IMG/VR virus record: IMGVR_UViG_3300028534_000023
Location: 9,641-73,640 of that record
Direction: 5' to 3' (one strand)
From: a virus
Lineage: Duplodnaviria; Caudoviricetes
Length of the DNA: 64,000 nt
A program made the translations under genes and the position numbers. This document shows positions 520 through 55,269 of this stretch, one piece after another; the first letter of the stretch is position 1, and each line of letters begins with the position of its first letter. The notes below the pieces were generated by a model. That model had not been told where the DNA came from, did no database searches, and saw only the letters and a program-made list of their open reading frames with translations.

Positions 520-3305
520 TAGTTACCTTCTTCGTTCAATAGAATTTTTAACTGTTCCAAAGATATATCGTTTTGTATTTCTTTAACATCAGCCCAGTTA
601 GAGTTTTTTGAAAAATCTACATCTAAGTTTGCATAGTTAGGTATTTTTTGTTGCACTATCCAATCCATCGTCATTAAATTTATTAATGTATTATTTACAA
701 AATACAGTATCTTAGCGTCTTTTTTTACTTCTAAATATATAGAATCGTATATTGTAGCTGTTATTTTTATGTCGTCTTGTAACCCTGCTTTATCTATCGC
801 TTTGTATAGTCTTGCATAAGCAATCGCAGTAAGTATACTCCAGAACTGCGAATTTGCATTGAATATTGTTCTAAATTCTTTATTTATATTACTGGATTTT
901 ATATAGCATCCTAAACCTAGGTATGATTCTCCAGTTTGTCTACATTCTGAAATAATACGTTCTTTCATTGTACCTATATCTTTGTATAACACATTCCAAT
1001 AATTGTCGTAAATTTCTTGTGTAATTACACCACCTTTATCACTATCTGGCATACCTAAGTATGCACATTTGAATGTAACTGGTTTAGAATTTTGTCTTAA
1101 TTTTTTTAATGTACTGTTATTTTCTACTTCATTTTTAAATCGTATTACTTTTTCGTTGTATGTTCCATCAGATCCTATTATCTTTTCAATCTGTTCTGTA
1201 TAATACCCCAATGCATTATAACAATGTGCATCTAAATTATTATCAAAAATAGCTTTTTTTCCAGCATCCCCTGACAATTCTGTAATTATTCTATCTTCTA
1301 GTTGTGCGTAATCTGAACCACACACTAAAAAATCTTTCTCTGCTGTAAAGCAAGCTTTTAACGGTTTAGCGTATTTACTATTAGATGATGGAGCATTTAA
1401 CATGTTTGGATTAGAACTTGTATATCTAAACGATTTTGCCCCAAATAAATTATAGTTTCCGTATAATCTTCCATCTACCGTATACTTTTTAAATGCTGCT
1501 ATGAAGTTTGTTTTTATAATGCTACTAAATGAAAATTCTATAAGCATTTGTGTTATTTCTCTTATATTCTCATCATTGGTAGTTTTGTTTACTATTTCTA
1601 TAGCCTCTCTACCCCACGACGGTTCACCTGTTGTTTTTGAGTATTTTTCTGGTTTGACTTCCAAGTATTTAAACAGCTCTATTTTTTGTTTTGATGATCC
1701 AGGATTAAATTTTAATTTTATATCAATATCTTCTATCTTTTTATCGTATTTCTTGTTATATATCTCTGCTTTGTCTTCTGCTAATTTTTGCATAGCTTGT
1801 TTTACGATAGTACTATCTTCGTTAAGAGTACCTTGTATCAAATCATTTAATATAGAAAGTTTTGTAGCCCTGTGTTTTTCATTTATGTTTATAAATTTTT
1901 TTATATCTGTTTTTGTCCATCGTATGGCTCCGTTTGGTAACTGTTTTTCTGGTATATACGAAAAATTTAGTGTAAGGTGTTCTAATACAGTGTTAGTTAA
2001 ATACGATATATGATCTATTTTCTTACTGTTAAATTCAGTAGGTAGGAACGCTGTTGCCTGTTTTTTCTTGTTTTGCAGTTCGTTTATTGTACAGTCGTAT
2101 AAATTTTTTTCTTTCATTTTTAGAAAGTTTTTTATTAATTCATTGTTATGAAGTGTTTCATCAACTGTATTTAATACTTTTACTATAGTATTTTCAAGCT
2201 CTTCTACTTTATTTTCGTCTATTTTAATTCCAGTCATCATAAGACGTACTGTAGGGTAAATTAGATGTTTTACTACATTTTCATAAAAATACCTTCTAGT
2301 TACTCTATTGTCTTTTTCTTTAGGGTTTGATGCAGGTAAAACACTATCTATTCCAACTGTATAATCTTCTGTATCTACTTTTTTAAAGTTTTTGTGTCTA
2401 TTTGCTTTATTAAACAAATAAAATGTAGCCATTGTATCTATACCAGCATAGTAAATCACATTTTCGTTTAATATGTTATCTACTGTAAATAGATTTGATA
2501 TACCTTCTCCCCAATTTCCGTATACTTCCTTTGCCAGTGTTTTTAGTCCTACTTCAGCTTTTTCTGAATTTGCATCATTTAATATAGTTTTCCACATTAG
2601 CATCGTATCATCTACTATAGTTTTTGGAAATTTTGAAGTTCTATCATATACTATTTTAAGATCAAATGTAGCGTTATGCCATATTTGTTTTTTGTCTGTA
2701 GTAACTAACCAATTACATATTTCTTTATCTAATGTTTCTGATGTTACTGGCAGCACATAAGATGTTTCTTCATCCACAGCTATTGATATGTGAGTAATTG
2801 TTGTAAGTTTAGGGTACGATAAACCCGTTGCTTCTATTTTTTGTACTAATTTTGTTATTTCTTTATCATCAGTACATGTACTTAATTTTGTTTTCAGTTC
2901 TTTTTGACAACTAGTTGATGAATATTTAGATGCAGTTTCAAAATCACATGCAATTGTATCGTAGTCCGATATTTTTGTAATAAGTTCGTGCAACGAATTT
3001 ACTTTAGTTACTGAAGTGTTTATTACAGCTCTGCGTATATCCAAGTGTGTTATATTAGCTATATGATCTACATAAACTATTTTTTCGTAGTTCAGCGTAT
3101 TAATATTTTTGTTATCTGTAATTAAAATTTTATTTGTAGTTATCTCTAGTAAATTATCTGTATATCCTACCAAGTGAGCTATTGATCCCCAATATTTTTT
3201 ATATGACTTTAAAGCTAACATTAAATTATTTCGATATGTACTATGCATATATACTACTACAGCAGGGTCTGCGCTTTGTTTGAACGTTGTCATATTAATC
3301 TCCAT
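519..3305 (-). CDS. polA: Family A DNA polymerase with 3'-5' exonuclease domain
   Basis: Exo motifs DFET, WHNATFDL, YAGIDT; polymerase motif A DYAQLEDR, motif B RQNSKPVTFKCAYLG, motif C TIYDSIY; GRLYGNY..GAKSFRYTSSNPNMLNAP. Confidence 0.95.
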   Translation of the reverse strand: MEINMTTFKQSADPAVVVYMHSTYRNNLMLALKSYKKYWGSIAHLVGYTDNLLEITTNKILITDNKNINTLNYEKIVYVDHIANITHLDIRRAVINTSVTKVNSLHELITKISDYDTIACDFETASKYSSTSCQKELKTKLSTCTDDKEITKLVQKIEATGLSYPKLTTITHISIAVDEETSYVLPVTSETLDKEICNWLVTTDKKQIWHNATFDLKIVYDRTSKFPKTIVDDTMLMWKTILNDANSEKAEVGLKTLAKEVYGNWGEGISNLFTVDNILNENVIYYAGIDTMATFYLFNKANRHKNFKKVDTEDYTVGIDSVLPASNPKEKDNRVTRRYFYENVVKHLIYPTVRLMMTGIKIDENKVEELENTIVKVLNTVDETLHNNELIKNFLKMKEKNLYDCTINELQNKKKQATAFLPTEFNSKKIDHISYLTNTVLEHLTLNFSYIPEKQLPNGAIRWTKTDIKKFININEKHRATKLSILNDLIQGTLNEDSTIVKQAMQKLAEDKAEIYNKKYDKKIEDIDIKLKFNPGSSKQKIELFKYLEVKPEKYSKTTGEPSWGREAIEIVNKTTNDENIREITQMLIEFSFSSIIKTNFIAAFKKYTVDGRLYGNYNLFGAKSFRYTSSNPNMLNAPSSNSKYAKPLKACFTAEKDFLVCGSDYAQLEDRIITELSGDAGKKAIFDNNLDAHCYNALGYYTEQIEKIIGSDGTYNEKVIRFKNEVENNSTLKKLRQNSKPVTFKCAYLGMPDSDKGGVITQEIYDNYWNVLYKDIGTMKERIISECRQTGESYLGLGCYIKSSNINKEFRTIFNANSQFWSILTAIAYARLYKAIDKAGLQDDIKITATIYDSIYLEVKKDAKILYFVNNTLINLMTMDWIVQQKIPNYANLDVDFSKNSNWADVKEIQNDISLEQLKILLNEEGN

Positions 3306-3403
3306 ATTGTTTTGTTATACTGCCGTGTTGTAGTTATGTTTTTTATACGGTTCAGTTTATTAAATACTGTCCATTCAAGCAGCTATGTAAAAATTTTATT
3401 TAT

Positions 3404-18769: not shown

Positions 18770-20545
18770 TTATTTCAAAGCTGTATGACAGGCTTTAAAA
18801 TTTCTTATTTTATCTACGGCTTTAAAGCATGCCTCAAAGTCTTTATCAGCTTTTTCTCCTACAGCTCCTATAGATTCTCTATAATCTGTAAGTACTGCAG
18901 TTCTATTTTTATACAGTTTTGTTAAGTTGTCTGCATAAGCTTTCTTAATATGTAATGCCTTAGAAGGTAATGTTAAAAATGCGTCATGGATTGCAATGAC
19001 ATTACTACCTATATTTAAACAAACATTATCAGCTATTTTACTATCTAAATTATGTACTAACCCTGTAGCTGTAAATAGCTTAAATCTTTCATAGTCTGGC
19101 ACTTCAAGTACTTTGTGCAGATGAAACTTCTTGACAATTTTCTTTTTCTCGTCAAACACTTCATATACGTGTAGATCTGCCCCTGCAGGTACAAATTTAT
19201 TTACATACACTTCGTACTGCTCTCCCCAACCATTTACAATATACTTAGGTGTATCTATACTTGTATTCTTGATTATAGCATCTTTAAATCTTTTTACTAC
19301 ACCAAACTCACCACTACTAAAAGCCTTTCTTATAGCCAGTACTTCGTCTGGTTGAATGTCGATACCTGCATCTCTAAGTAGTTTTATAGTACTTTGACTG
19401 CTTCCGTAAAATACAGGTGTACCTACCTTCTTAGCTGATAGTCTTCTAACGCCTTCTACTTCCCAAGCATCTTTTAAATTACCTGCTCTAATTACGTTAG
19501 TTTTGTCCAACAGTCTTTCTTCTCCTAACAATACTCCAATGATCTGACCTAGCGACATCGTAGCATCTAGTTCTATCGGTATATCCCAATAAACTTGACC
19601 TACTTCTCTTAATAGATCTAATTTATCATACATGCGTTCCAACCAAATGTACTCATGTATTGTTTTTCTGTCTAAACTGTCAGGTAATTCTCTATTTAAA
19701 GAAGCTATTACACCACTAAGTACTTTTTCTGCATATCTTTTACGTTTCTTTCCAAGCAATTCTGCAATAAAAGCATAAACAGCATTTAACGAATCTTCAT
19801 CGTGGCTATGTAGTATCTCGCCCTTGTTTAATACTAGACAAGCTCTAGCTCCTTTATCAGTAATTGGGTTAAATACTCTTTTTAACCCTTTGTATACTGC
19901 CCTTCCTCTTTGGTCCAGATATAGACCTTCTAAGTTGAATACTGTGTCTTTACCAGCAGTTATGACATTTTCTACTACTTGCTCTACTACTTTGCCGAAA
20001 TGTAAAGTATTATTTATTGACGGGTACTTTTTAAGTATCTTTTTCATAGCATATACAGAATTTTCTATTAAATGTTTTTTGTACTTTACTATATAATTTT
20101 TATCGTATCTATACGAAACTTGTGAAGACATCAGAAACCCCGGTCTGTTTAACCCTGTTTCTTTTATACCGTACGGAGTTTTAACTTCTGTGCTTATATC
20201 ACTCGTAAAGTACTTAGGCATATACTTATTTACAAGTATATGTTTACGATATTCTAAAATGCTTGTTTTTCCGTAGTAATCTTCAAGAGTACTTACATTA
20301 ACACCGAACGAAGCATAAGAGTGTCTTATTTCTGTTACTAACAAGTTATAATGATCTAACACCATCATCAAATCTACTATGTATATTGTACCAAATTCGT
20401 CTTCTAACCCTGGTACTGACAATAACTTACCCGTAGCTATACTCCATTCTAATTTATGCATTACTTTGTTGAATGTATCTGATCCATAAAACAGTGTATT
20501 TAATGCTTTGTCTGAAAATACTGTTTCTATATATTGTACTAACAT
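18770..20545 (-). CDS. T7-family single-subunit RNA polymerase (N4 RNAPII position), one chain
   Basis: YLDQRGRAVY (DxxGR), IELDATMS (motif A), RRLSAKKVGTPVFYGS (motif B), LVHNLDS, IAIHDAF (motif C). Confidence 0.93.
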   Translation of the reverse strand: MLVQYIETVFSDKALNTLFYGSDTFNKVMHKLEWSIATGKLLSVPGLEDEFGTIYIVDLMMVLDHYNLLVTEIRHSYASFGVNVSTLEDYYGKTSILEYRKHILVNKYMPKYFTSDISTEVKTPYGIKETGLNRPGFLMSSQVSYRYDKNYIVKYKKHLIENSVYAMKKILKKYPSINNTLHFGKVVEQVVENVITAGKDTVFNLEGLYLDQRGRAVYKGLKRVFNPITDKGARACLVLNKGEILHSHDEDSLNAVYAFIAELLGKKRKRYAEKVLSGVIASLNRELPDSLDRKTIHEYIWLERMYDKLDLLREVGQVYWDIPIELDATMSLGQIIGVLLGEERLLDKTNVIRAGNLKDAWEVEGVRRLSAKKVGTPVFYGSSQSTIKLLRDAGIDIQPDEVLAIRKAFSSGEFGVVKRFKDAIIKNTSIDTPKYIVNGWGEQYEVYVNKFVPAGADLHVYEVFDEKKKIVKKFHLHKVLEVPDYERFKLFTATGLVHNLDSKIADNVCLNIGSNVIAIHDAFLTLPSKALHIKKAYADNLTKLYKNRTAVLTDYRESIGAVGEKADKDFEACFKAVDKIRNFKACHTALK

Positions 20546-21402: not shown

Positions 21403-21418
21403 CCTATTATAATAAAAG
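21403..21418 (-). promoter_or_regulatory. 16-bp repeated motif, copy 1 (plus-strand CCTATTATAATAAAAG)
   Basis: Matches the copies at 22662 and 23023 (15/16 to each). Confidence 0.55.
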
Positions 21419-21611
21419 TTTTTGTGTATTGCAAGTAGTCACCCAATACCATAAAAATATTTACTGTCTGTTTACCAAATCGTCCAAACAATATATATAT
21501 TATATATACTATACTGCTGTATTGGTAATTAATGAATCTGTATAAAACATACAAAAACGTCCATTTCTGTACTATCGTTCTTTAATACGGATTAAATCTG
21601 GACTGATACAC

Positions 21612-22661: not shown

Positions 22662-22677
22662 CCTATTCTAATAAAAG
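22662..22677 (-). promoter_or_regulatory. 16-bp repeated motif, copy 2 (plus-strand CCTATTCTAATAAAAG)
   Basis: Intergenic, 28 nt upstream of the leftward ATG at 22634. Confidence 0.55.
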
Positions 22678-22724
22678 CTAGTTCTTTCTTATTTGTGTAA
22701 TGTGTAAAAAATAAACTAGACTCC

Positions 22725-22985
22725 CTACAGGGAATCTAATAAGTCTTTCATGAATTGTTCTTTTACAGCTTTCTGCAATTCTTTTTTATTTGCCGTCAAT
22801 ACTTCTAACTCTGCTTCTCGAATTAGTCTTGACTTAACAAGCTCATGCTCTGCATCCTCTTCGAAGTTTTTAGCGTATTTACTAACCCCTAACACTACAC
22901 TATCTACCATTCCTACAGTTGTATCTACTGCACCTAAACCTTTTACCAGCGTATTCTCTACGCTTTTAGTTAATTTGTTTGCCAT
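22725..22985 (-). CDS. First early gene, hypothetical
   Basis: 86-aa ORF with AAGGA RBS. Confidence 0.7.
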   Translation of the reverse strand: MANKLTKSVENTLVKGLGAVDTTVGMVDSVVLGVSKYAKNFEEDAEHELVKSRLIREAELEVLTANKKELQKAVKEQFMKDLLDSL

Positions 22986-23022
22986 TACAGGTCCTTATTT
23001 TTAATGTACATATTTTTATATG

Positions 23023-23038
23023 CCTGTTATAATAAAAG
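23023..23038 (-). promoter_or_regulatory. 16-bp repeated motif, copy 3 (plus-strand CCTGTTATAATAAAAG)
   Basis: Intergenic, 38 nt upstream of the leftward ATG at 22985; adjacent to a G7 run. Confidence 0.55.
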
Positions 23039-23098
23039 TGGGGGGGCTATTGTGTAATGTGTATTGTGTGGTGTGTACTACAAAACCCTCAGAAAATT

Positions 23099-23107
23099 TG
23101 TTATAAT
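23099..23107 (+). promoter_or_regulatory. Extended -10 promoter TGTTATAAT
   Basis: 6 nt upstream of the ATG at 23114. Confidence 0.65.
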
Positions 23108-23113
23108 TCCTAT

Positions 23114-23542
23114 ATGAATTGCAAAAAATGTGAAGAACTGTTAAATAAGTACAGGTATGACTCGCTTACTGGTATGAAGTTAAGACATGACTATGAAGAG
23201 GAGATACAGAAACTATTAGATAACGATATAAAGTTTTATTATGTTCTATGGGATGTAAATAACTTACATAAAGTTAATCGTGATCTTGGGTATTCTGCTG
23301 GTGATAAGTTAATAAAAATGTGTTCTAATATAATAAAAGATACAGATTTTCTGATAGAGTGTTACCGTATAGGTGGTGATGAGTTTGTTTCTACTCACAG
23401 TAACAACCCTGTACTAATACCTAACAAATTGATGACATCTGTAACTGTGTTAAGTGGTACAGCTAACTCTGTATCTGAGTTAGTTGACATAGCAGATGTA
23501 CTGCTTACTAAAAGTAAATACCGTAGACGTAGTGATAGGTAA
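23114..23542 (+). CDS. Stand-alone GGDEF domain protein (putative diguanylate cyclase)
   Basis: YDSLTG, LWDVNNLHKVNRDLGYSAGD, YRIGGDEFV, ELVDIADVLL. Start placed at the ATG at 23114 (MNCKKC) rather than 23057. Confidence 0.9.
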   Translation: MNCKKCEELLNKYRYDSLTGMKLRHDYEEEIQKLLDNDIKFYYVLWDVNNLHKVNRDLGYSAGDKLIKMCSNIIKDTDFLIECYRIGGDEFVSTHSNNPVLIPNKLMTSVTVLSGTANSVSELVDIADVLLTKSKYRRRSDR

Positions 23543-23583: not shown

Positions 23584-24324
23584 ATGGCAGGTAGTGACTA
23601 TATACCAATGTCTAAAATTATAGCACCTAAACCACTTGGGATAACTAGAGAAGAGCTACAGAGTCGTATGCCTAAAGGATCTAGTGCTAAAATAACTGAT
23701 GAAATAATTGCATTGCTTAATTCTATGGAAGATGACACTGGACTAGATCAAGGATTGCTTGAGGAACAGTTTCTATCTAACTTACATCTTATAGAAAATA
23801 CTACGTTTAAGAAACTTATAGCTGCAGTAAAATTCGTAAACTTGAAAAGATTTATGGAAAACAAAGATGCTTACTCTATAGTGTTTAGAGAAAAATATAA
23901 TAGGTTGATAGCAGAAGGCAGGGATGTAAACAATTATGTATCTATGTATAATAGATCTCCACTTATTGTAGAAATAGAAAAAAAGACAATACTACCTGCT
24001 CATTTAGAGTATAGTAAAACTAGGCACAATATGATAATGAGACTAGAGTCTCTAGCCAATGGTGTGTGTGCTAATGGAGGAAAAGTCAGTCCTATGGTGC
24101 AAGCAACTGCAGCGTCTAAATTATTAGACCAGCTAGCAATCCCTGCTGAACATACAGTAAACTTAAATTTCGGGCTTACTGATAAAGCAGTTAGTGTACA
24201 AGAACGTCTTATAGAACAACTAAATACAATGACAGAGAAACAATACAATGAACTTATAAGTGGGGCTGATTTGAACGATGTGCAGCAGTTAGGTATTAAT
24301 GTTATTGATACAGAAACAGTGTAA
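23584..24324 (+). CDS. Putative terminase small subunit (N4 gp69 position)
   Basis: Directly upstream of the large terminase, helical sequence. Assignment mainly by synteny. Confidence 0.6.
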   Translation: MAGSDYIPMSKIIAPKPLGITREELQSRMPKGSSAKITDEIIALLNSMEDDTGLDQGLLEEQFLSNLHLIENTTFKKLIAAVKFVNLKRFMENKDAYSIVFREKYNRLIAEGRDVNNYVSMYNRSPLIVEIEKKTILPAHLEYSKTRHNMIMRLESLANGVCANGGKVSPMVQATAASKLLDQLAIPAEHTVNLNFGLTDKAVSVQERLIEQLNTMTEKQYNELISGADLNDVQQLGINVIDTETV

Positions 24325-24338: not shown

Positions 24339-26258
24339 ATGAGTAATAATATTACGGCAATCGCTGACGACGACACACTTTATAGTACGTTGTCTGACGA
24401 TGTAAATCCTAGTGACATAGAAAGAGTCAATAATACAATAAAAAATAATGAAAATTCTTATACTTTTGACTTAGACAAAGCGCTTGACACTTATGATCCT
24501 ACATTTCCTAGATACACTCCTAGCAAAAATGCACTAGAATACTTTAACATAATGCGTCTAGTACAAGGCAAGGATTTTGAGTTCAACACACCAAAAGCCC
24601 ATTACTTTATGGCTGATTTATTACTAAATGAGATTACTGATCCTATGGTGTTTCCATACAGTGAAGAAGTCTGTAAGACAATATCTATAGATACGTTACG
24701 TCTAGCTTTTATGGAGAGCAGGGGTATGTCTAAATCAACTGTAGTAGTGTCTTTCTTTGGTGTATACAGTGCCATAAAAGGAGAACTACCTAACGGTATA
24801 GGAAAAGTATATTTTTATCTTGTTGTAGCAGCAGCAAGTAAAGGTGGTGCTAGAGTAAATGCCTTAGCCGTAAGAGCTATGTGTGAAGACAGTCCTTTTA
24901 TAAAGGAATACTTTGAAGAAGTACGATTTACTGAAAGTGAAAGTGAGTTTGTACGTAGAGGATCTTCACCAAAAAAAGATCGTAGCTTCTTGTTAAGATA
25001 CCAAGGTATAAGTACAGGTATCCGTGGTGTTAGGTACGGTGAACGTAGACCATGTGCGATAATATTTGACGACATTATACTTAATGAGGCTGCAGCTTAT
25101 TCAGTAACTGTGTCAAAGGCTCTTAAAACAGCTGTAGCATCTGACGCAGTATCTGCGCTAAAAGGTGGAGGTAAAGGAAGGATAATAAACTGTTTTACCC
25201 CTTTTCATTATGAAGATGTTAATACTTCTCTTATTATGACAGGTGCTTATACTCCTTGTGTTATACCTATAGCAAAGACGTTCGATATACCTAAAACTGT
25301 TTTTGCAGCTAGAAAAAATCTACTATCGTCAAACATAGAGAGCAGCTGGGAGTCGATGCATCCAAGCAATAGTATACGTGCTATGGTAATATCAGCTATG
25401 CAAGCAAAAGAGTTACGAAGTTTTTTACAAGAAAGAATGTTACGGTTATCATCAGATTCTGATAGGCTTGTTTCAGACTCGTCTATACAGTACTTCGACT
25501 TAAATGATGTATTAAGAAAAAAAGAAAACTACCACATATACATTACTACTGACTTCACTACTACTTCAGGTACTGCTAGTGACTTTAGTGGAACTGCGTC
25601 ATGGGCTGTAGGTAGTGATGACAAGTGGTATTTACTTAATGTAATATTGTCAAAGCGTGACATGAAAACTCAGTATGAAGATACACTTAACGAAGCTATC
25701 AGATGGAGCAGCTATGGGTCACATACAGAAATAGGTATTGAAGTAGACGGCAATCAAAGAGCGCATTTATACAGCATGCGTAAATTGATGGAAGAGCGTA
25801 ATACAGTATTTCCTTTATCAAGAGACAAATACACAAAACATCCAGAAGGTGGTGTATTGAGTAGAGGGTCTGGTGTAGGCAAACATGAGAGGTTCCGTAT
25901 AGCTGTTCACCAATTATTCAATACACGTAGAATATTTTTTGCAAGACAGTTAATAGATACTCAAGATTTTACGGAGTTTCTTGCACAAATAAGGGGAGCT
26001 ACTCACGCAACATTTACAAGATCTGATGATGCCCCTGACCTTATAACAATGCTAACAGTAATAGATTATATACTCCCTGACAAAAAAGGCAATGTATTAT
26101 CTGATATGAGTTATACAGGTTCTTCATACATGTATGAAAAAGATGACGAAGAAGATGTTTTAAATTCTAACAATCCGTACGGTATGTATGGTGACACCGA
26201 TAATATTAATGAAGCTACTAATTTTGACGATGATTTTTCTAATAATTACTGGTTTTAG
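24339..26258 (+). CDS. terL: Terminase large subunit (N4 gp68-like)
   Basis: ESRGMSKST Walker A, GIRGVR, IIFDDII Walker B, TDFTT..SDFS nuclease motif, DDAPDLI. Confidence 0.9.
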   Translation: MSNNITAIADDDTLYSTLSDDVNPSDIERVNNTIKNNENSYTFDLDKALDTYDPTFPRYTPSKNALEYFNIMRLVQGKDFEFNTPKAHYFMADLLLNEITDPMVFPYSEEVCKTISIDTLRLAFMESRGMSKSTVVVSFFGVYSAIKGELPNGIGKVYFYLVVAAASKGGARVNALAVRAMCEDSPFIKEYFEEVRFTESESEFVRRGSSPKKDRSFLLRYQGISTGIRGVRYGERRPCAIIFDDIILNEAAAYSVTVSKALKTAVASDAVSALKGGGKGRIINCFTPFHYEDVNTSLIMTGAYTPCVIPIAKTFDIPKTVFAARKNLLSSNIESSWESMHPSNSIRAMVISAMQAKELRSFLQERMLRLSSDSDRLVSDSSIQYFDLNDVLRKKENYHIYITTDFTTTSGTASDFSGTASWAVGSDDKWYLLNVILSKRDMKTQYEDTLNEAIRWSSYGSHTEIGIEVDGNQRAHLYSMRKLMEERNTVFPLSRDKYTKHPEGGVLSRGSGVGKHERFRIAVHQLFNTRRIFFARQLIDTQDFTEFLAQIRGATHATFTRSDDAPDLITMLTVIDYILPDKKGNVLSDMSYTGSSYMYEKDDEEDVLNSNNPYGMYGDTDNINEATNFDDDFSNNYWF

Positions 26259-26307: not shown

Positions 26308-26937
26308 ATGACATACCAACAATTTATAGACATGGCAAAAGCAGGTGAATTAAAATCTTTAGCTATTAAAACAGATACTGAAGCTATATTATCATTTGTT
26401 AATTTAGGTCTTTTAGAGTTATATAAAAGATTTCCTATAAAAACTGTAGAACATATAGTTGAGTATGACGAGAATAATATTACACAAGAATATAAAATGC
26501 CTGCTGATTACATGTGGTTAGTAGCTGCTTATTGTGAAGTACCTTCAAATTATTCTGACAACACTATGTCACTTCCTATTAACAGTGTAGACGATCCTTA
26601 CACTGTAAACACTGTAAGTTATAATACAATACAGATACCTATGATGGCTTCGCAGGAACGTGTATCGCTAATATACGCTGCTTCTCCAGACATTGTTACA
26701 GAAACTGACATATTATCTGAGTTAGATTTACCTATACCACCTCAACTTATAGACTCGCTAATGTTATATGTAGCGTATAAAGCAAATGATACTGTTGCTG
26801 GCAATAAAACAGATATAGAAAGCAATGTACATTATACTAGATACGAATTAAGTATAAAACGTGTAGTGGCTGAAGGTATGTTTAATGAAGAGAGCTTAGA
26901 TATGTCTGGAAGACTTTATCAAAAAGGATTTATATAA
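26308..26937 (+). CDS. Virion structural/adaptor protein (N4 gp67-like)
   Basis: ILSFVNLGLLELYKRF and LMLYVAYKA patterns; position after terL. Confidence 0.7.
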   Translation: MTYQQFIDMAKAGELKSLAIKTDTEAILSFVNLGLLELYKRFPIKTVEHIVEYDENNITQEYKMPADYMWLVAAYCEVPSNYSDNTMSLPINSVDDPYTVNTVSYNTIQIPMMASQERVSLIYAASPDIVTETDILSELDLPIPPQLIDSLMLYVAYKANDTVAGNKTDIESNVHYTRYELSIKRVVAEGMFNEESLDMSGRLYQKGFI

Positions 26938-29900
26938 TGGGAAGAAGTTCTACATTCTGCAATTCGTCTACTATCCCTATATCTCAGTTTATAGGAAGCA
27001 AGTACGACGATGTAAAAGAAGTTGCAGACAAGCTCGACATGCTAACAGAAATAGCAAATATTGATTATAATGCTTTATTAAGTGCTTTAGAAGAAGCTCA
27101 AGATTTTACAGGTATAGTTGTAGTTCCTACTACTACAGAATCTAGGTGGGATGCAGAAACAAAAACACTGTATGTAAAAACAGTTGAAGGTATACAAGGC
27201 GAGAAAGGTATACAAGGAGAGAGAGGAGAGAAAGGAGAAAGAGGAGAACGTGGGTTACAAGGATTACAAGGATTAAAGGGCGACACTGGTGACAAGGGTG
27301 ATAAAGGTGATAAAGGCGATGACGGGAAACCTGGAGTAAGTATCCATCACATAAAACCTGTAGGCACTACAGAACCTAATGGTCAGTTTACTACCCCTGG
27401 ATACGTAGATACTTATAATTTATTTGCAGATGCAGATGAGACTTTGGTTCTTGGAAGTTTTTCTGTAGCAAACCCTGACCTTTCAATAGCACCTGAAGTT
27501 ATGACTAAGAGTACATATGACTCTAACAGCAGTGGCGTTGTAGACAATGCAGAAAAACTTGACGGAAATACTGTAGATGATGTTATAAATGCAGTAGTAG
27601 AAAAAGTACCTACAAGCTACGCTGCATCTAACATTACGTTAGATACGTCAGAATTTGATGGAAACTTTGATAATAGCGTAACTGACGTACAGGCAGCTAT
27701 AAATTATTTAGATAATCTTATAACATCTGGTGGTAACGTGACTATAGAATCTGGTGATACTCCTCCAGTAACTGCTGAAGATGCTACGTTGTGGCTAAAC
27801 ACTAAAAACAATAGTGTGTATATTTACGTCAACGGTGTATGGGTAAATGCTACAACTAGTTTATCAGTAACTACAATATCTACTGTACTGTCAGTTATAT
27901 TAGACACTGCTCCTTTTTCTGCAACTTCTACCACACATGTAGACACTGTAAAAGTATGTGTAGTAAGAAATGAGAACTTGTTTACAGATATTACGTTAAA
28001 TGGAAACGTACTTACCTTCAACAAAGCTACTGAATATACAAACATGATTAAAAAAATAGTACCGTGTTATAGAAGTTCTGTATTACTGACTAATGATGGT
28101 ACAATCATGGAAGCAGGGTATGATGTCTCTTCGAATGTGTTTGTACCTGTAAATGTAAATGGCTTCGTGCGTGATATTTTCTATGGACATGAGGCTGTAT
28201 GGTTATTGATGTACGACGGAAGTGTAATGTACAAAGGACTGAACACATCGTACACTGCAGGTCTTGGACATTCATCAGAAGTTGCTTCTTTTACAAAAGT
28301 TCCTTATATAGAAAACATTAAAAAAATAGCTAGTACTAGAGATTTTTCTGTAGCACTCACTGAAAGTGGTAACGTATTTGTTGTAGGAGATGCTGAAAAA
28401 AACAGTACGTACCTTCTTAATGGAGATAGTTCTATTACAAGTAGATTTACATATGTAGACAATTTAGGACATACAGTCATTGATATAGCTGTATCTAGTA
28501 TGTCTACGTTTATTTTAACATCTAGTAATGAAGTATACGGGATAGGTCTTGCTTACGGTCTTTACGAAAATCTTACCGACGCGTACAATCTAGGGTTAGT
28601 AAATAACATGGCAGTGTCTAACAAACTTGTAAAAGCTGTAGGAATACCTAACGGAGACATAGTAAGCATACATGGTCCATCATATGTAGGCTCTGTAAGT
28701 ATAGCGTGCATTGACAGCAGTAATATTATATACGGTAATAAAGAAGACAGCTCGTATAACGAGCTAGGTGGACTAAAAGATACAAGCACGCATGGATTTT
28801 CTAACTTGCATATAACAGGCACTGACATAGTTATAGGGTACTATTGTTCGTTTTATATAGATTTAGATGGTATTGTATGGGCTAGTGGTCTGGATTATGG
28901 AGGTCAGTTAGGTACTTCTGGTAGTGTTACTGAATATACAAATACTGGTATAAGTAATGTTTCTTATATCTCAAGTATTCAGTACAACTCGTTTATGGTA
29001 TTAAATACCGATACCTTTTTATGTGTAGGAGACAACTCATCAGGCGAACTCGGTATAGCAAGTGATGACTCATCTACAAATGAATGGTCTCAGTATTCTG
29101 TAGATATTGCTAACTCGTCAGGGTATATAGCATGCACTGACGTTATTAAAGTAGATATGGGTGTAGACTTTGAAGTATCTACAGTATCTGGTGACACTGC
29201 AGGTATAGATGAAGTGCGTATATTAGGATACGTAGTTACAGATGACAATATACATACTGTAGATACTACAGACTACTTAAAAATTGACGGTAGTAGAAAT
29301 CTTGACAGTAGCTATACTCCAGTAGACGATTATTCAGTTGCTACAAAACTGTACGTAGATTCTATTAGCAAAGTAATAGAAGTGTCAAATGTAACTGATT
29401 TAGACTCTATTGATGGCAATATTGTACACTCTGTATGTGTAACATCTTCAACATTAGGTGGCATATACGTATATGATCCATACTATACTGGAACAGCTTA
29501 TAGTTATAATGGGTGGGTACGGCAAAGTAACTCTGGAAACAAACCTGCAGTAGACGTTTATGTTGATACAACAAATTTTGGAGGAGAAGTTTTAAGTAGT
29601 GAAGATACAAATCTACAACTAGCGTTAAACACGCTAGACAAACTTGTAAACACTGGAGGGTCGGTAGAAGTAGTAAAACAAGATTACCCACCAGCGTCGT
29701 TAAAAGAAGGTAGTATATGGTATGATACTAAAAATAACATGATATTTTTCAGTATAAATGGTTCTTGGGTAAATGCTAGCAAGACAGTAAAAGTACCTTT
29801 TTATAACAATATTCTAACTACTATATTAGAAAACAGTACTGAATATCCTTTGAGTATCAAAAGTGACACTGCTGTTGGAGCTGTCAGATTACTTGTAAGA

Positions 29901-31310
29901 CGTACAGAAGATAAGTTTACAGATATAACCATAAATGGCAGTTTGGTAGAGTTTAAAACGTCTGAGCAGGATATTCCAAGCATAGTAAATATAGCATCAG
30001 GCAATAAAGAAACTGTTATATTACTAAATGACGGAACTGTGTTTACGTCTGGAGATTTTTCAGACAGTGCAGTATTCGTTCAAGATACTACCGTTACTGA
30101 CTTTATAACTGATTTGTTTGACGGTGTAAGAGGTGTATGGATAAAGAAAGTAGATGGAACTGTTTTATATAGAGGTGCAAATTATAATTTTACTGCAGGG
30201 CTTGGTCATAGAAGCACTGTTTATCAGTGGACAGAAATACCGTACTTGAAAAACGTAAAAAAGATAGTAAGTACTACAAACTTCTCTGTAGCATTAACTG
30301 ATTTAGGGTTTGTACACACTGTAGGATATGTAGTATCTGCAGACAGCTATCTACCTAACGGTACTACTGCGACAACAGATAAATTTACTTTAGTTGACGG
30401 CATAGATAACGTAATAGATATAGCAGTATCTTCTACTTCAACATTCATGCTAAAAGCAGACGGAAGTGTGTACGGCGTAGGTAAGGCTTATGGTTTGTTT
30501 GAATCTATATCAGATGCACATCAAAGTGGTTTAGTTAACGATTATTCAGCTGTGCTAAAACCTACTAAAGCTGTAGGACTTCCTAACGACATAGTTAAGA
30601 TATTCGGAGGTTCAAGTTCTTCAGAATCAATAGTATGTGTTTCAGCTGACGGAAGTATGTACTGTAACTATGAGAATACTACGTATAACGATATAGGTGG
30701 TTTGAAAGATTTATCTACTGATGCTTTTACTTACTTAGGTATTAAAGGAAAATATTTTACTACTGGGTATCACTGTTCGTTCTACATAGACGTTGACGGC
30801 AACTCGTTTGCAAGTGGTTATAACTACGGAAATCAATTAGGGCTTTCATCTAGTGTAGACTCGTATACTGAAATAGATGTACCTACAGGTGTATCTAAAA
30901 TAGTTACAGCCTATAATCAATCATTGTGTATAACAGATACAGATATTATAGGAGTAGGCGAAAATAGTGTAGGTGAGTTAGGTGTTGATGATACAACTGA
31001 TAAAGATACATGGGCAACTGCTACCATAAGTATAGACTCTAACTTTAACGGATTTAGGGCTTTATCAGAATATATTCCGTTAAACAACATTACTGACATA
31101 TTTATAGATGTGATAGGTAGTAATAGTATTGATAGTATATACGTGTCTTTGTATAACATTACAGAAGAATATGTTTTTATGGAAGATACTACTTCGTACC
31201 TATACTCTAACGGCTCTGTTCTTCTTGACGAGGATTATACACCGTTTACTGAAAGAAGTATAGCAACTAAAAAATACGCAGATGATTTAGTATCTGTTGT
31301 AGAGTGGTAA
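26937..31310 (+). CDS. Tail fibre / receptor-binding protein with collagen-like stalk and two RCC1-like beta-propeller modules
   Basis: GXY repeats; repeated FSVALT..G.V, IAVS..STF.L...G.VYG.G and V.CVG.N..GELG RCC1-like blades; internal duplication. Confidence 0.85.
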   Translation: MGRSSTFCNSSTIPISQFIGSKYDDVKEVADKLDMLTEIANIDYNALLSALEEAQDFTGIVVVPTTTESRWDAETKTLYVKTVEGIQGEKGIQGERGEKGERGERGLQGLQGLKGDTGDKGDKGDKGDDGKPGVSIHHIKPVGTTEPNGQFTTPGYVDTYNLFADADETLVLGSFSVANPDLSIAPEVMTKSTYDSNSSGVVDNAEKLDGNTVDDVINAVVEKVPTSYAASNITLDTSEFDGNFDNSVTDVQAAINYLDNLITSGGNVTIESGDTPPVTAEDATLWLNTKNNSVYIYVNGVWVNATTSLSVTTISTVLSVILDTAPFSATSTTHVDTVKVCVVRNENLFTDITLNGNVLTFNKATEYTNMIKKIVPCYRSSVLLTNDGTIMEAGYDVSSNVFVPVNVNGFVRDIFYGHEAVWLLMYDGSVMYKGLNTSYTAGLGHSSEVASFTKVPYIENIKKIASTRDFSVALTESGNVFVVGDAEKNSTYLLNGDSSITSRFTYVDNLGHTVIDIAVSSMSTFILTSSNEVYGIGLAYGLYENLTDAYNLGLVNNMAVSNKLVKAVGIPNGDIVSIHGPSYVGSVSIACIDSSNIIYGNKEDSSYNELGGLKDTSTHGFSNLHITGTDIVIGYYCSFYIDLDGIVWASGLDYGGQLGTSGSVTEYTNTGISNVSYISSIQYNSFMVLNTDTFLCVGDNSSGELGIASDDSSTNEWSQYSVDIANSSGYIACTDVIKVDMGVDFEVSTVSGDTAGIDEVRILGYVVTDDNIHTVDTTDYLKIDGSRNLDSSYTPVDDYSVATKLYVDSISKVIEVSNVTDLDSIDGNIVHSVCVTSSTLGGIYVYDPYYTGTAYSYNGWVRQSNSGNKPAVDVYVDTTNFGGEVLSSEDTNLQLALNTLDKLVNTGGSVEVVKQDYPPASLKEGSIWYDTKNNMIFFSINGSWVNASKTVKVPFYNNILTTILENSTEYPLSIKSDTAVGAVRLLVRRTEDKFTDITINGSLVEFKTSEQDIPSIVNIASGNKETVILLNDGTVFTSGDFSDSAVFVQDTTVTDFITDLFDGVRGVWIKKVDGTVLYRGANYNFTAGLGHRSTVYQWTEIPYLKNVKKIVSTTNFSVALTDLGFVHTVGYVVSADSYLPNGTTATTDKFTLVDGIDNVIDIAVSSTSTFMLKADGSVYGVGKAYGLFESISDAHQSGLVNDYSAVLKPTKAVGLPNDIVKIFGGSSSSESIVCVSADGSMYCNYENTTYNDIGGLKDLSTDAFTYLGIKGKYFTTGYHCSFYIDVDGNSFASGYNYGNQLGLSSSVDSYTEIDVPTGVSKIVTAYNQSLCITDTDIIGVGENSVGELGVDDTTDKDTWATATISIDSNFNGFRALSEYIPLNNITDIFIDVIGSNSIDSIYVSLYNITEEYVFMEDTTSYLYSNGSVLLDEDYTPFTERSIATKKYADDLVSVVEW
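27189..27335 (+). repeat. Collagen-like Gly-X-Y repeat (about 16 triplets)
   Basis: GIQGEKGIQGERGEKGERGERGLQGLQGLKGDTGDKGDKGDKGDDGKPG. Confidence 0.95.
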
Positions 31311-51360: not shown

Positions 51361-54300
51361 ATGGAGTACGATATTTCACAAGCAGGTTCTGCTGCTGTAG
51401 ACAATTTTACTACTGCTGTAGAAAATGATTATTCGTCTTCTGCAACAGAAGAATACAAAACAAATAAATTGTCTTCTGTTGCGCAAGATAAAGTATCAAG
51501 ACTTTCTGGCAGATCTGTCGCACCTGACATATCTCCAGAAGCTGCATACGCTTTAAGCTCGTTTGACGAAGTACCAGAAGGTACATCTTTTTCTGATGAC
51601 TACTCTTCTAACCTATCTGCACTCACTAATACTGTAAGGGGTGGTGTTGGAGCATTTGCAAGTACAGTAGTAAATCTTCCATTGCAGTTAGCTTCTACAT
51701 TAGAATCTGCTGCTACTTACGGATCGTCTAAATACTTATATGGAAAATCTGATGAAGATGCTTACAAAGATGCGCAAGTCGCTAGTTTTTATTCTGCTGA
51801 TACAGCTAACGATCTTACACATATGTTACAAGGAGAGCAATTTACTAGACACCATGCTGCTAAACAATCCGAGTTTGACAAGACATTCAAAGAGTCTGGG
51901 CTATCCGATTTTGACATTTTTAACCCATCAGAATCGTTAGATAAATTAGACGGAGGTAAGGTAGTAGATACTGTAAAAACTGCCTTTAGTGATGTAGATT
52001 CTACTGTGGATTCTTTAGGACATGTTGCAGGGTTTTTACTAGGTATACCTGAAAAAGGTTTAAGATACTTAATGTCATCATCTGTTGGAAAAGTCACAGC
52101 TCACCAAGCTGCTAAAAAAGAATTGTCTAAACTCATTGATAAAGCTGCAAAAACAGAAACTAAAATAAGTACTGGTTCAATCAGTAAAAGTGATGTCCTT
52201 AACAAGGGTATTGTCATAAACTCTATAGATGATTTAAGTAAAGCAGCTAAAGCTAAATATATCACATTCGCAAACCCGTCTGTAGAAAAAGAGGTTACTA
52301 AACAATTAGCCAAGTCTACAAGAGTTTTAGATAATGTAGGTACAGGTTTAAAAACTAGGGCTTGGATTCTTAATAATTCAAACAACCTAGCACTAGCTTC
52401 TGATATGTCTTTACAAGATCTTGATGAATACCAGAAAAAATATGGTGACATGCCTACACTCACACACGCTTTACTTGGTTACGGCGCTAACTTTGTAGGA
52501 GCTAAGTTAGAGCTATGGAGTGATAAACTTGCTTTAGCAGGTACTCCACAAGGAGTATCAGAACTTGTTGCAGGTATGGGTAAAACGAAGGCTAAAAAAT
52601 TCGTAACAGGGCTTGTTGCAGGTAGTCTTAGCATGCTTGAAGGTGGTATAGCTGAATTTCCTGCAGAATTTGTACAAAGTGCTATACAGAGTTTTGACTC
52701 TAGCTATAAAGACGAAAGTACTTTTACAGAAAGCGTAAAAAAGGCATTTAACGACGGTTTAAAAGGTTCTATATATGGACTATCTTCAGGTGTACATATG
52801 TCTACACCTAGAGCATCTATTAAACCATTTACTAACATGATAAATAGTGGTACATCAAATACGTATGATGCTGTAAATACTATAACTTCCGACAACGGAG
52901 TTTCACTTAAGCAGTCAATAGCCAACGAGACAGGTGTCCCTGCAGAAGACCATAATGTAGTTATAAATAGTATTGAAACTGCTATGAATACTGCTGACAC
53001 ACCTGTCAACGAACTGTTTACGCCAGATGAACTTAAAGCAAATCGAAATCTTGTTGATAACTATGTGCTTACTCTAGGAGATGAAGTAAAGCGCATAGAC
53101 TCTATTATTAGTGATGACAACAACGAGCTTACAGAAGAAGATAAAACCAATCTACTAAGTAAAAGAAACGATTACAGTGCAGGTATTGCCAAATTTATGG
53201 AAATGCGCGAATACCTAGAAGATCCAGATACAGGATATACGTTAAATAGTAGACCTGTCAGCTCTATAGAAAAAGATCTAATGTCAGTATCTGAGCAGTT
53301 GAAAGAAAGTCCATCAGACAACAAACTTAACAAGCTTAAAAGATACCTTGAAATCGAGAAATATGTTGCAGAACACCCTGCTGTAAAATCTACAGGTGTA
53401 ATTGGAGATAGTGGCGTAGATACTGTAGGAGATGACATAAAGTCTAGTATTAACACTACTCGTATTCAAGGATTGTTTGGTGGGTACACTGATGACGGAT
53501 ACCGTACAGGTATTATGCATATGATTAAACCGTTGCTTAATCAAGATAATACAAAAGAGCAAACTACAGCAGCTGTAAACAATATAAATAGATTTATAGG
53601 ATCACAAGTAGCTAAATACGATGCTCTTATTAAGTCTAAAGATAAGTACGAGTCTAATGGGAATGTCCCTGTAAAGGTAAACTATAAAACACCAAAAGGT
53701 ACTGTACATAACGTCGTATACAACGGAAAACAGTCTGATAGTTTTTTAAAAAATATAAAAACAGATATAGATTTATACAACAACATACTTGAGATGGCGT
53801 TAGGCAAGCCTTCTAGCAATGGCATAGATAATAATACACGTACCAGTAGTACAGTACAAGCTACTAAATCAGTTGACAATTATGACAGTATACCAGATAA
53901 TGAGAAAAATTCTATAAAACAGCTTTTGACTGAATCAGCTAACAACAACTCTTCATTATCGTTAAACAGTTTACTTACAAAATCAGCTGTGCATAGAAAA
54001 TACACCAGAGAGCTAGCTAACAAACTTGGCATTAAGCTAAGTGTACGTGACGGTTCTATATTTGTGAATACAGAAAAACCTACGTCTGGTAATACTGCAA
54101 CTAAACCTGCTAATAATATTGTACAAAACAGTAGTAAAGACAAACCTAAGTCTGTTACAGACAAAATAAGTACTTCCAATGTACAGTCATCCAATAAATT
54201 ATCATCTCATGACGCTAAAGCAATTGAACAAGTTATTGATAACTTACTTAACGGTGGAGAAGATGTAGACGTAAAAAACAGCATAGTAGCAAAGACAAAA

Positions 54301-55269
54301 TTACATAAAAATTATACAAAAAAAGTCGCTGATAAACGTGGTATAAAACTTTTTATTAATAAAGGTAAACTAAAAGCAAGGAATGGTGGTAAGCATGAAA
54401 CCTCAAATAAAGGCATTAAAAGAAAGACTAAAGAAGGTACAACAAATGAAAAAAGAAGGAAATCAGTTACTGTCAAAGACGAAAGTAGCTATGAAAAAGA
54501 TTCATTAAACAATGCCGTAACTCGTAGTAACAATTTATTGAATCTAAACATGTCTACACAAGAATTGATTGATGTTTTAATTGATGAATCTTATACGCAG
54601 TCAAACCTAGTTGAAAGTGCTAGAGTAATTGAAATAACTGCTAATAAACTACTTGATACTGATAACAGTATATCAATTGATGAAAAAACGCAGCTAAATT
54701 TACTAGTAGATTTAGCTAATGAGCTTATTTCATTACACAATGTAAAAAAAGAGCTAACTGCTTCTGCAAATAAACTCAACAATGTGCGTAACTTTTATGT
54801 AAAACTTCATCTAAATAACATCAATAAATGGCTTAATAAGTATACTGACACTTATAAAAAACTATCTACAAGTAGTAAAAGAAAAGCTACAAAAACATTT
54901 AATACGCTTGCAGGTAGTAGGATAGTTTCTTCAGGCAGGTTAAAAAATACCAAGAACAAAGATGCTGTACTGCTTGGTGACATAACAGACAATAAAGAAC
55001 TGTTTAATACTGCCATGCAATTATCTGGTAATGAATATTTTAACCTTGTATCTGATACTGAATCATACAGTAAAAGAAAATCTAGCATAGAAAGTCGCAT
55101 TAAACGATTTAGGAATGAGGCATCGTTTTATAGTAGTAAACGTAATAAACAAGTAGCAAATCTTACTTCTGTAAAAGATAGTGTAGCTAGTAAGGACCTT
55201 GTTGATAAGTATAACGTATCTACCGATACACTAGAGTCTTTACACGAATTTTTAGGGGGTTGTAAATAG
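51361..55269 (+). CDS. vRNAP locus part 1: large virion/ejection protein without polymerase motifs
   Basis: 1302 aa with amphipathic/hydrophobic N-terminal segments; abuts the RNAP ORF in the same frame. Confidence 0.75.
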   Translation: MEYDISQAGSAAVDNFTTAVENDYSSSATEEYKTNKLSSVAQDKVSRLSGRSVAPDISPEAAYALSSFDEVPEGTSFSDDYSSNLSALTNTVRGGVGAFASTVVNLPLQLASTLESAATYGSSKYLYGKSDEDAYKDAQVASFYSADTANDLTHMLQGEQFTRHHAAKQSEFDKTFKESGLSDFDIFNPSESLDKLDGGKVVDTVKTAFSDVDSTVDSLGHVAGFLLGIPEKGLRYLMSSSVGKVTAHQAAKKELSKLIDKAAKTETKISTGSISKSDVLNKGIVINSIDDLSKAAKAKYITFANPSVEKEVTKQLAKSTRVLDNVGTGLKTRAWILNNSNNLALASDMSLQDLDEYQKKYGDMPTLTHALLGYGANFVGAKLELWSDKLALAGTPQGVSELVAGMGKTKAKKFVTGLVAGSLSMLEGGIAEFPAEFVQSAIQSFDSSYKDESTFTESVKKAFNDGLKGSIYGLSSGVHMSTPRASIKPFTNMINSGTSNTYDAVNTITSDNGVSLKQSIANETGVPAEDHNVVINSIETAMNTADTPVNELFTPDELKANRNLVDNYVLTLGDEVKRIDSIISDDNNELTEEDKTNLLSKRNDYSAGIAKFMEMREYLEDPDTGYTLNSRPVSSIEKDLMSVSEQLKESPSDNKLNKLKRYLEIEKYVAEHPAVKSTGVIGDSGVDTVGDDIKSSINTTRIQGLFGGYTDDGYRTGIMHMIKPLLNQDNTKEQTTAAVNNINRFIGSQVAKYDALIKSKDKYESNGNVPVKVNYKTPKGTVHNVVYNGKQSDSFLKNIKTDIDLYNNILEMALGKPSSNGIDNNTRTSSTVQATKSVDNYDSIPDNEKNSIKQLLTESANNNSSLSLNSLLTKSAVHRKYTRELANKLGIKLSVRDGSIFVNTEKPTSGNTATKPANNIVQNSSKDKPKSVTDKISTSNVQSSNKLSSHDAKAIEQVIDNLLNGGEDVDVKNSIVAKTKLHKNYTKKVADKRGIKLFINKGKLKARNGGKHETSNKGIKRKTKEGTTNEKRRKSVTVKDESSYEKDSLNNAVTRSNNLLNLNMSTQELIDVLIDESYTQSNLVESARVIEITANKLLDTDNSISIDEKTQLNLLVDLANELISLHNVKKELTASANKLNNVRNFYVKLHLNNINKWLNKYTDTYKKLSTSSKRKATKTFNTLAGSRIVSSGRLKNTKNKDAVLLGDITDNKELFNTAMQLSGNEYFNLVSDTESYSKRKSSIESRIKRFRNEASFYSSKRNKQVANLTSVKDSVASKDLVDKYNVSTDTLESLHEFLGGCK

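Follow-up and report, generated by a model that had tools for sequence, protein, structure and literature searches.

Does a bacteriophage carry its own enzyme for making a bacterial second messenger? The question is raised by a small gene in a 64,000-nucleotide stretch of viral DNA, positions 9,641 to 73,640 of IMG/VR virus record IMGVR_UViG_3300028534_000023 (the whole stretch is called the window below, and coordinates refer to it). The gene, P0001, runs on the plus strand from an ATG at 23114 to a TAA at 23540–23542 and encodes a minimal, stand-alone GGDEF protein of 142 amino acids (aa). An initial annotation, made from the sequence alone, had described it as a phage-encoded diguanylate cyclase with its active-site motifs intact. 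We used profile searches, structure prediction and analysis of the surrounding genome to follow up this description. We favour, with some reserve, the reading that the gene encodes a phage-delivered diguanylate cyclase, constitutive and without a product-inhibition site (I-site), which would raise the level of cyclic di-guanosine monophosphate (c-di-GMP) in the host.

Fold and active-site residues

The Pfam GGDEF model (PF00990) matched residues 15–92 of the 142-aa protein with a score of 34.9 bits (E = 1.6e-8; gathering cut-off 23.8), and gave 31.6 bits in a six-frame search of the genome. The protein has no domain besides GGDEF, in agreement with the annotation, which had noted that a sensor domain was missing. 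The fold was predicted with AlphaFold2 (AF2). When only the single sequence was supplied the model was unusable, with a predicted local distance difference test score (pLDDT) of 54, but a model built with a 35-sequence alignment had a pLDDT of 94.2 and a predicted template modelling score of 0.85. Its elements follow one another in the order α0-α1-β1-α2-β2-β3-β4-α4: a helix at residues 3–14, a helix at 24–36, a strand at 42–48, helices at 51–75, the two hairpin strands at 80–85 and 90–95, and, beyond a loop, a strand at 107–113 (β4) and a helix at 120–141 (α4). Foldseek returned 91 matches in the PDB at E ≤ 0.001. All the matches listed are GGDEF-domain proteins and nearly all are diguanylate cyclases, those at the top being the coiled-coil plus GGDEF construct of DgcB (6ttr), SadC, a T. 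maritima GGDEF protein, GCN4-WspR (3i5c), DgcR and DgcZ, with template modelling scores of 0.65–0.80. A profile of the protein's family likewise matched 49 solved GGDEF proteins, among them DgcR (6zxb) over its full length at 3e-17, the C-terminal Lys included.

Conservation was counted over 60 non-identical members of this family, whose overall identity is only 30–45%. In the DxLT wide turn, T19 is kept in 59 members, D16 in 49 and L18 in 46. Alignments to solved cyclases give the following segment the canonical spacing DxDxFKxxNDxxGHxxGD, with D47 as the metal-binding Asp and N55 and D64 as the guanine contacts; the counterparts of these three residues in PleD are D327, N335 and D344. Conservation in the segment is high (D47 59/60, H52 57/60, N55 60/60, G63 60/60), and the D64 column holds Asp in 56 members, Asn in 4 and Ser in none. 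Within the hairpin, G88, D89, E90 and F91 are each present in 59 of the 60, and R85, which lies two residues ahead of G87-G-D-E-F91, in 48, with His in 8 more. The last helix aligns by profile to the ADxxLYxAK helix of DgcR 6zxb. K135 (60/60) falls on the YEAK Lys of DgcR, D128 is kept in 57/60, and R137–139 would form the Arg part of the phosphate-binding AK..GR motif.

The motifs on which the initial annotation relied (D16-S-L-T19, D47, N55, D64 and GGDEF) are therefore all present in a protein that scores above the Pfam cut-off. Its further statement that the RxxD inhibitory site is missing also held: at the canonical spacing, five residues upstream of GGDEF, the protein has D-F-L-I instead, and 0 of the 60 relatives have RxxD. 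Relative to the canonical D-x-D-x-F-K-x-x-N-D-x-x-G-H-x-x-G-D, the family has a signature of its own: the second acidic position is filled by Asn or Asp, F-K becomes L-H, and in most members N-D becomes N-R and G-H becomes G-Y. Because the catalytic and substrate residues are conserved while overall identity is only 30–45%, the alignment points to selection on catalysis, and retention of D64 and N55 fits GTP as the substrate.

These counts bear on the possibility that the protein is catalytically silent, serving as a binder of GTP or c-di-GMP, or as an adaptor or decoy protein that would titrate out a GGDEF partner of the host. The trimmed fold would suit such a role, inactive heterodimers could arise between a host cyclase and the lone half-site, and degenerate, non-enzymatic GGDEFs are known, for example S. 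aureus GdpS, which recruits DgkB (PMC11962490). In GGDEFs that have lost catalysis, however, the motif or the residues that bind metal and base are normally gone; here they are kept in 56–60 of the 60 members at 30–45% identity, and there is no I-site to bind c-di-GMP. A silent protein therefore seems unlikely.

The same residues also speak to the nature of the product. The protein could be an active nucleotide cyclase or polymerase that makes not 3′3′-c-di-GMP but cyclic GMP-AMP (cGAMP) or cyclic di-AMP (c-di-AMP), as Hypr GGDEFs and mCpol do, or only linear pppGpG. Hypr GGDEFs vary in product (cGAMP synthases) and have Ser in place of the base-reading Asp. Here the position of the Hypr Ser is occupied by D64, and both guanine-reading residues are retained. 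Variation of product among GGDEF-fold enzymes, such as OptS, which makes 2′3′-c-di-AMP (PMC12657218), and the family's own signature at the substrate pocket (L-H for F-K, N-R for N-D, G-Y for G-H) would be in favour of a different nucleotide. In the OptS study, however, adenine recognition is linked to Ser and guanine recognition to Asn (PMC12657218), and our protein scores as a GGDEF domain, not as a Cas10-like palm. We regard a product other than c-di-GMP as quite improbable.

Ahead of the DxLT motif, 58 of the 60 relatives have a helical segment of 13–53 aa, mostly 17–35 residues. This N-terminal helix is amphipathic in the family, with a heptad-like pattern; in a few members its place is taken by a membrane helix. 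The initial annotation had singled out a CxxC N-terminus with a short helix that could dimerise through zinc or a disulfide. Both elements exist (C3 and C6; helix 3–14), but CxxC in the N-terminal segment is found in 1 of the 60, the 142-aa protein only, and its use as a zinc or disulfide dimerisation device was rejected as a family feature. Because only one member has it, the CxxC is probably incidental, and the conserved feature is the N-terminal helix itself. A homodimer prediction with two copies plus GTP and Mg scored 0.28 against a mark of 0.42, a result that weighs neither way on pairing.

A family of small GGDEF proteins

An exhaustive HMMER search of 1.84 billion representative proteins gave 7,546 matches at E ≤ 0.001 and 88 at E ≤ 1e-10. 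Among the best 90 matches, 66 are 230 aa or shorter, and the top ones align over their full length at 31–41% identity. The closest relatives are mostly stand-alone proteins of 135–215 aa, and small proteins account for about 80 of the 152 nearest representatives. Scanning IMG/VR with an alignment identified 26 viral contigs (5–501 kb), each coding for a small stand-alone relative (133–216 aa). Nothing was found when IMG/VR was scanned for close relatives using the single protein, and a word-indexed homology search recovered only the 142-aa protein itself and two weak matches. The initial annotation had called GGDEF genes rare in phages. This is true to the extent that no close relative occurs in about 50,000 deposited phage records, but it was overstated: 26 IMG/VR contigs carry one, six PHROG families match the protein, BFVD holds nine viral GGDEF folds, and GGDEF genes have been annotated in Yuavirus and Vojvodinavirus (PMC8471281).

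The relationships within this set were examined with a quick maximum-likelihood tree, whose support is limited. A split with 95% support in the Shimodaira–Hasegawa-like approximate likelihood ratio test (SH-aLRT) places the window protein on one side together with 34 small proteins, 15 proteins from viral contigs and one Thiomicrorhabdus protein. The opposite, cellular side is made up of GGDEF domains that belong to long cellular proteins with several domains. Also placed there were the Yuavirus protein and a second group, of eight proteins from viral contigs. Phages therefore seem to have acquired GGDEF domains and trimmed them on more than one occasion. By its sequence the gene is a member of a distinct, largely uncultured lineage within the small stand-alone phage GGDEFs, a kind that has already been annotated.

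In the second group of eight IMG/VR-contig GGDEFs, the proteins are of 133–167 aa and the contigs have a GC content of 22–32%. At six of these loci a radical SAM enzyme of about 329 aa is encoded directly upstream of the GGDEF gene (L024 5006–5995, L026 5013–5996, L027 4698–5684, L029 1000–1986, L030 1371–2399 and L031 5012–5998), and the two genes adjoin or overlap in L024, L026, L029 and L031. The two could be a functional pair, or the arrangement could merely reflect common ancestry of related phages.

Relatives were also sought on bacterial genomes with a degenerate DNA pattern. The matches listed were mostly canonical multidomain GGDEFs (Clostridia, Janthinobacterium), and one true family member was among them, on a metagenome-assembled genome of Thiomicrorhabdus. 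This gene (locus L065, 2791–3342, minus strand) encodes a 183-aa protein with an N-terminal membrane helix that scores 143 bits against the family profile. It is chromosomal, with ordinary cellular genes around it. Because its GC content of 32.8% is well below that of its flanks (40.0%), the copy appears to have been acquired horizontally, and it hints at vent sulfur-oxidisers as a host pool. Separately, about 30 human-gut records named 'Bacteriophage sp.' (MT839200.1, MT836160.1, MT837137.1 and about 27 others) encode GGDEF-like stretches with 26–42% identity to the query. These records are short and unannotated, mostly of 4–27 kb and up to 91 kb.

The carrier phage and the setting of the gene

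The carrier is, by its gene content, an N4-like phage. Genes of N4 type occur in N4 order (gp69-like, large terminase, portal, major capsid, virion RNA polymerase), with the portal matching phrog_1216 at 4e-188, the major head protein matching phrog_1357 and the virion RNA polymerase matching phrog_2206 at 1e-113 and 1e-48. The major capsid protein matches 473 phage records, mostly N4-like, and the nearest cultured phages by this protein are Alteromonas podophages, at 63% and 54% identity. A megablast search with 6 kb against deposited phages gave no match, and a tRNA scan for clues to the host found none. The phage comes from hydrothermal-vent and epibiont metagenomes, its probable source run bearing an epibiont metagenome label.

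The GGDEF gene is followed immediately by the gp69-like gene and the large terminase gene, and the early region is on its other side. The GC content of the GGDEF gene (32.4%) and its GC at third codon positions (GC3, 26.6%) are similar to those of its neighbours, and the window as a whole has 32.7% GC. Two runs of a second study hold the same region, on contigs of 9.6 kb and 37.6 kb that span the GGDEF gene with the same gene order. The 37.6-kb contig differs by 222 substitutions over 5.5 kb, and its sole indel is in an intergenic gap, at 21491, with none in the GGDEF gene. The initial annotation had allowed that the locus might prove to be host-contig contamination. A chance open reading frame (ORF), or host DNA misassembled into a phage contig, might be suspected from the state of the 73,640-bp IMG/VR record, which is linear with an estimated completeness of 73%, and from the position of the gene at the junction of two transcription arms, where misjoined assemblies can occur. 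The independent second-study contigs span this junction and refute such an artefact, the chance of which we put at next to nil; GC and GC3 match the phage, and the domain itself is highly significant. Because both flanks are of N4 type, the GC is phage-like and the second-study contigs have the same arrangement, contamination is excluded, and the GGDEF gene is a phage gene. Its location in a phage is thus shown, as are its fold, the conservation of its residues and the existence of its family.

The database gene call starts earlier than ours, at an ATG at 23057, and gives a protein of 161 aa. This ATG falls within a TG-rich 14-nt motif that has an exact copy at 22693, in another intergenic gap, and a degenerate copy at 23064. 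The 19 additional residues include three Cys and one Trp. The resulting form with five Cys was judged unlikely, its Cys, Val and Trp codons deriving from the repeated non-coding motif. The commonest number of residues ahead of the DxLT Asp in the family is 19, and the 142-aa protein has 15. Because ATG 23057 sits in the repeated TG-rich motif and family N-termini are short, ATG 23114 is the more likely start. The repeats argue that the stretch 23057–23113 is regulatory and not coding.

Most of 42 starts in the window have AAGGA or GGAG 6–10 nt upstream. A Shine–Dalgarno sequence is missing ahead of ATG 23114, and since a TGTTATAAT box is found 7 nt away instead, the GGDEF transcript may be leaderless. 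A putative promoter further upstream (Table 1) overlaps one copy of a 17-nt AT-rich direct repeat, D1, which occurs at 21403–21419, 22662–22678 and 23023–23039. Near the junction of the two transcription arms, the intergenic gaps contain a two-part module in which the 17-nt AT-rich motif is followed, about 30 nt on, by the TG-rich 14-nt motif. The latter is present at 22693–22706 and 23050–23077, and the AT-rich motif precedes it in both gaps (at 22662 and 23023). The module, which is probably regulatory, coincides in part with TATAAT boxes on the plus strand and with the GGDEF gene's alternative ATG.

A 170-nt contig from a hydrothermal-vent metatranscriptome is identical to 22766–22935, within a leftward 86-aa ORF (22725–22985). 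It is the sole cover of the region by an RNA library, lies outside the GGDEF gene and is silent on GGDEF expression; it may represent carry-over of DNA.

Table 1. Features of the GGDEF gene and its surroundings, in window coordinates
Feature	Position	Strand	Evidence
Putative promoter, TGTACA-17 nt-TATAAT with TG extension	23005–23033	+	Consensus scan, 10/12 matches plus TG; consensus match only
Two tandem copies of the TG-rich 14-nt motif; the first holds the alternative ATG 23057	23050–23077	+	Repeat analysis
Second TGTTATAAT box, ending 7 nt ahead of the A of ATG 23114	23099–23107	+	Pattern search
GGDEF gene P0001, 142 aa, stop codon TAA included	23114–23542	+	ORF, Pfam, AF2 model, PDB fold matches
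N-terminal helix, residues 3–14, leading into the DxLT turn; holds C3-x-x-C6	23120–23155	+	AF2 model
DxLT wide-turn motif D16-S-L-T19	23159–23170	+	Aligns to DALTG of PA0861
Substrate/metal segment D47-V-N-N-L-H52-K-V-N55-R-D-L-G-Y-S-A-G-D64	23252–23305	+	Alignment, conservation
Active-site hairpin R85-I-G87-G-D-E-F91; no RxxD upstream	23366–23386	+	Motif, conservation
C-terminal helix, residues 120–141, with D128, K135 and basic R137–R139 tail	23471–23536	+	Model, profile alignment
N4 gp69-like gene	23584–24324	+	phrog_2109 at 3e-27; tblastn matches in 314 N4-like records; 'N4 gp69-like' in DSS3phi2
Terminase large subunit	24339–26258	+	phrog_38 at 2.7e-45

Three other parts of the genome drew attention. 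The virion RNA polymerase, a single protein of about 3,500 aa in N4, is represented at 51361–63266 by three ORFs in a row (1302, 1371 and 1295 aa). The first has no PHROG match; the second and third match phrog_2206 at profile positions 1054–1894 and 2250–3380. A 591-aa protein encoded on the minus strand at 18770–20545 has weak matches to phrog_414 and phrog_2051 (phage RNA polymerase) and matches three functionally uncharacterised families strongly; it could correspond, as a single chain, to N4 RNAPII. A 1457-aa tail-fibre-like protein (26937–31310) has collagen-like tail-fibre matches near its N-terminus and several regions of repeats of the RCC1 (regulator of chromosome condensation) type.

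Proposed activity and comparison with known systems

Enzymatic activity, dimerisation, the timing of expression and a benefit to the phage are what we infer from these findings. In the proposed mechanism, each monomer would provide one GGDEF half-site, holding the base of GTP through N55 and D64, its phosphates through K135 and the Arg tail, and the metal through D47 and D89-E90. Because a GGDEF monomer is half an active site, two copies must meet; two monomers would pair and join two GTP molecules into c-di-GMP. By analogy with coiled-coil and stalk-linked cyclases, the pairing element would be the short N-terminal helix. Helix α3 carries a secondary inhibitory Arg in PleD. Because our protein has no sensor, no RxxD and no α3, the enzyme would be constitutive: its synthesis would suffice for activity, and its product would not inhibit it. 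A rise in c-di-GMP in the infected cell would then shift the host towards a sessile, exopolysaccharide-producing and non-motile condition, or towards whatever c-di-GMP controls there. The phage might gain from immobilisation of the host, an altered host surface, a block to superinfection or interference with cyclic-nucleotide immunity.

Several observations weigh against this proposal. Helix α3 and the terminal strand of the canonical GGDEF fold are missing from the AF2 model, and the profile alignment to DgcR has two insertions in DgcR, of about 13 and about 11 residues, at the site of the missing elements. A His replaces the near-universal Lys of DxDxFK; this is a family trait (57/60) that is also seen in some cellular multidomain GGDEFs. 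Few family members have a shorter N-terminal helix (the DxLT Asp follows 15 residues), and for this reason self-association of the 142-aa protein is uncertain. Biochemical evidence was found for no member of the family. A c-di-GMP-responsive target in the host is hypothetical. Searches of the phage for PilZ and EAL domains found none, as did an Rfam scan of the window for a c-di-GMP riboswitch, so any target of c-di-GMP would have to be a host one. Finally, a related fragment (L155), with a gp69-like gene at 43% identity and a terminase gene, has other small ORFs upstream and no GGDEF gene, and the gene is also absent from the nearest cultured relatives, the Alteromonas phages. Because L155 and the Alteromonas phages do without it, the GGDEF gene is, on this genome comparison, accessory and dispensable.

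The purpose of the c-di-GMP could also differ from control of host lifestyle. It might be made for counter-defence, flooding the cell and competing at cyclic-nucleotide immune effectors or sponges, or quieting guard systems that respond when nucleotide signals are lost. The initial annotation had likewise raised the idea of a decoy nucleotide against cyclic-nucleotide immunity, on which the findings weigh neither way. Cyclic-nucleotide signalling is a central battleground between phage and host, and the authors of the Panoptes study expect phage answers to guard systems (PMC12657218). On other viral contigs the neighbours of family genes include DNA polymerase, helicase, T4-type topoisomerase II, ribonucleotide reductase, NAMPT, RtcB, gp32 and PhoH; some of these are nucleotide-metabolism and RNA-repair genes (RtcB, NAMPT), which are often tied to counter-defence. 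Analysis of conserved neighbours across the subfamily loci, however, showed no common neighbour or partner, and none in common with the window, and no known sponge or nuclease was identified beside the gene. Moreover, making c-di-GMP would be self-defeating in hosts whose alarm signal in the cyclic oligonucleotide-based antiphage signalling system (CBASS) is c-di-GMP itself (PMC13725321). We think it quite improbable that counter-defence is what the c-di-GMP is made for.

A broader form of this idea would treat minimal phage GGDEFs, whose carriers range from N4-like podophages of 70 kb to contigs above 200 kb, as a widespread class of takeover or counter-defence enzymes that make a cyclic dinucleotide during infection so as to jam, forestall or exploit the host's cyclic-nucleotide signalling. 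They might, for example, compete at CBASS or STING-type effectors, silence guard systems that sense sponges, or block superinfection through exopolysaccharide and loss of motility. We rate this whole picture as rather unlikely. Known phage strategies are to degrade or sequester bacterial cyclic nucleotides and, in one phage group, to activate a host cyclase; if the picture were true, these would be the first phages to make a bacterial second messenger instead of degrading or sequestering it.

The lifestyle reading, in which c-di-GMP from a phage-delivered cyclase changes host behaviour, remains the one that we prefer. N4-like phages are a lytic group, and an active enzyme would mean that lytic phages reprogram host behaviour directly via c-di-GMP. 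The 142-aa gene is a compact test case for a phage diguanylate cyclase and points to a conserved, mostly phage-borne family. A published assay of a phage-encoded GGDEF protein or diguanylate cyclase was not found in the literature searched, and work on this gene could provide the first biochemical demonstration that a phage makes a bacterial second messenger. If active, it would also be a naturally minimal cyclase without feedback inhibition, and a tool for raising c-di-GMP.

Among solved enzymes, C. crescentus DgcB (6ttr), GCN4-WspR (3i5c), L. biflexa DgcR (6zxb) and E. coli DgcZ (4h54) share the palm fold and the half-site residues. In the coiled-coil and stalk-linked cyclases a helix precedes the DxLT turn, as it does here, and positions two GGDEF domains for catalysis. 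The phage protein differs from them in being about 25–30 residues shorter, without α3 and the last strand, in having no RxxD and no sensor or receiver domain, and in the His for the Lys of FK.

Small GGDEFs are also encoded by cultured phages: Pseudomonas Yuavirus (for example Epa38 gp75, 154 aa), the Bordetella Vojvodinavirus phages LK3 and CN1 (152 aa), and the Bacillus phages SP-15 (183 aa) and G (gp350). Like the window protein they are phage-borne and stand-alone, of about 150 aa, with (A/G)GDEF kept. They belong to another lineage, however, and were not recovered by tblastn at E ≤ 1e-3. Epa38 gp75 scores 60 bits against the family profile, has the canonical L-K/N-D/G-H signature and groups with cellular multidomain GGDEFs beyond the 95% SH-aLRT split. 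The Yuavirus and Vojvodinavirus GGDEFs have been proposed to alter host biofilm, LK3 lysogens being hyper-biofilm formers, and these phages carry an integrase and form lysogens (PMC8471281).

The proposed outcome has a parallel in a lytic phage that raises c-di-GMP by other means. The YIP peptides of Pbunavirus raise host c-di-GMP by activating the host cyclase YfiN (PMC8085984). They are short peptides that act on a host enzyme, whereas the window phage is proposed to bring its own, and there is no sequence relation between the two. Among N4-like phages, adsorption of N4 to E. coli depends on a host exopolysaccharide under c-di-GMP control, via NfrB/NGR (PMC8669472, PMC8669469), as the initial annotation had correctly stated for the NfrB pathway, and Erwinia phage S6 uses c-di-GMP-dependent cellulose (PMC9544554). 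In both cases host cyclases supply the c-di-GMP, and no GGDEF gene was found in deposited N4-like genomes. A link between the GGDEF gene of the window phage and such receptors is an analogy only, and a suggestive one.

A further parallel, of similar size, is mCpol/OptS of the Panoptes system, a minimal, constitutively active palm cyclase related to both GGDEF and Cas10 (PMC12657218). OptS is a host enzyme that acts on ATP, largely lacks a GGDEF motif and has as its partner a 2TM effector encoded beside it in a defence operon (PMC12657218), whereas the window protein is viral, has no effector neighbour and carries the full GGDEF motif together with the guanine-reading residues.

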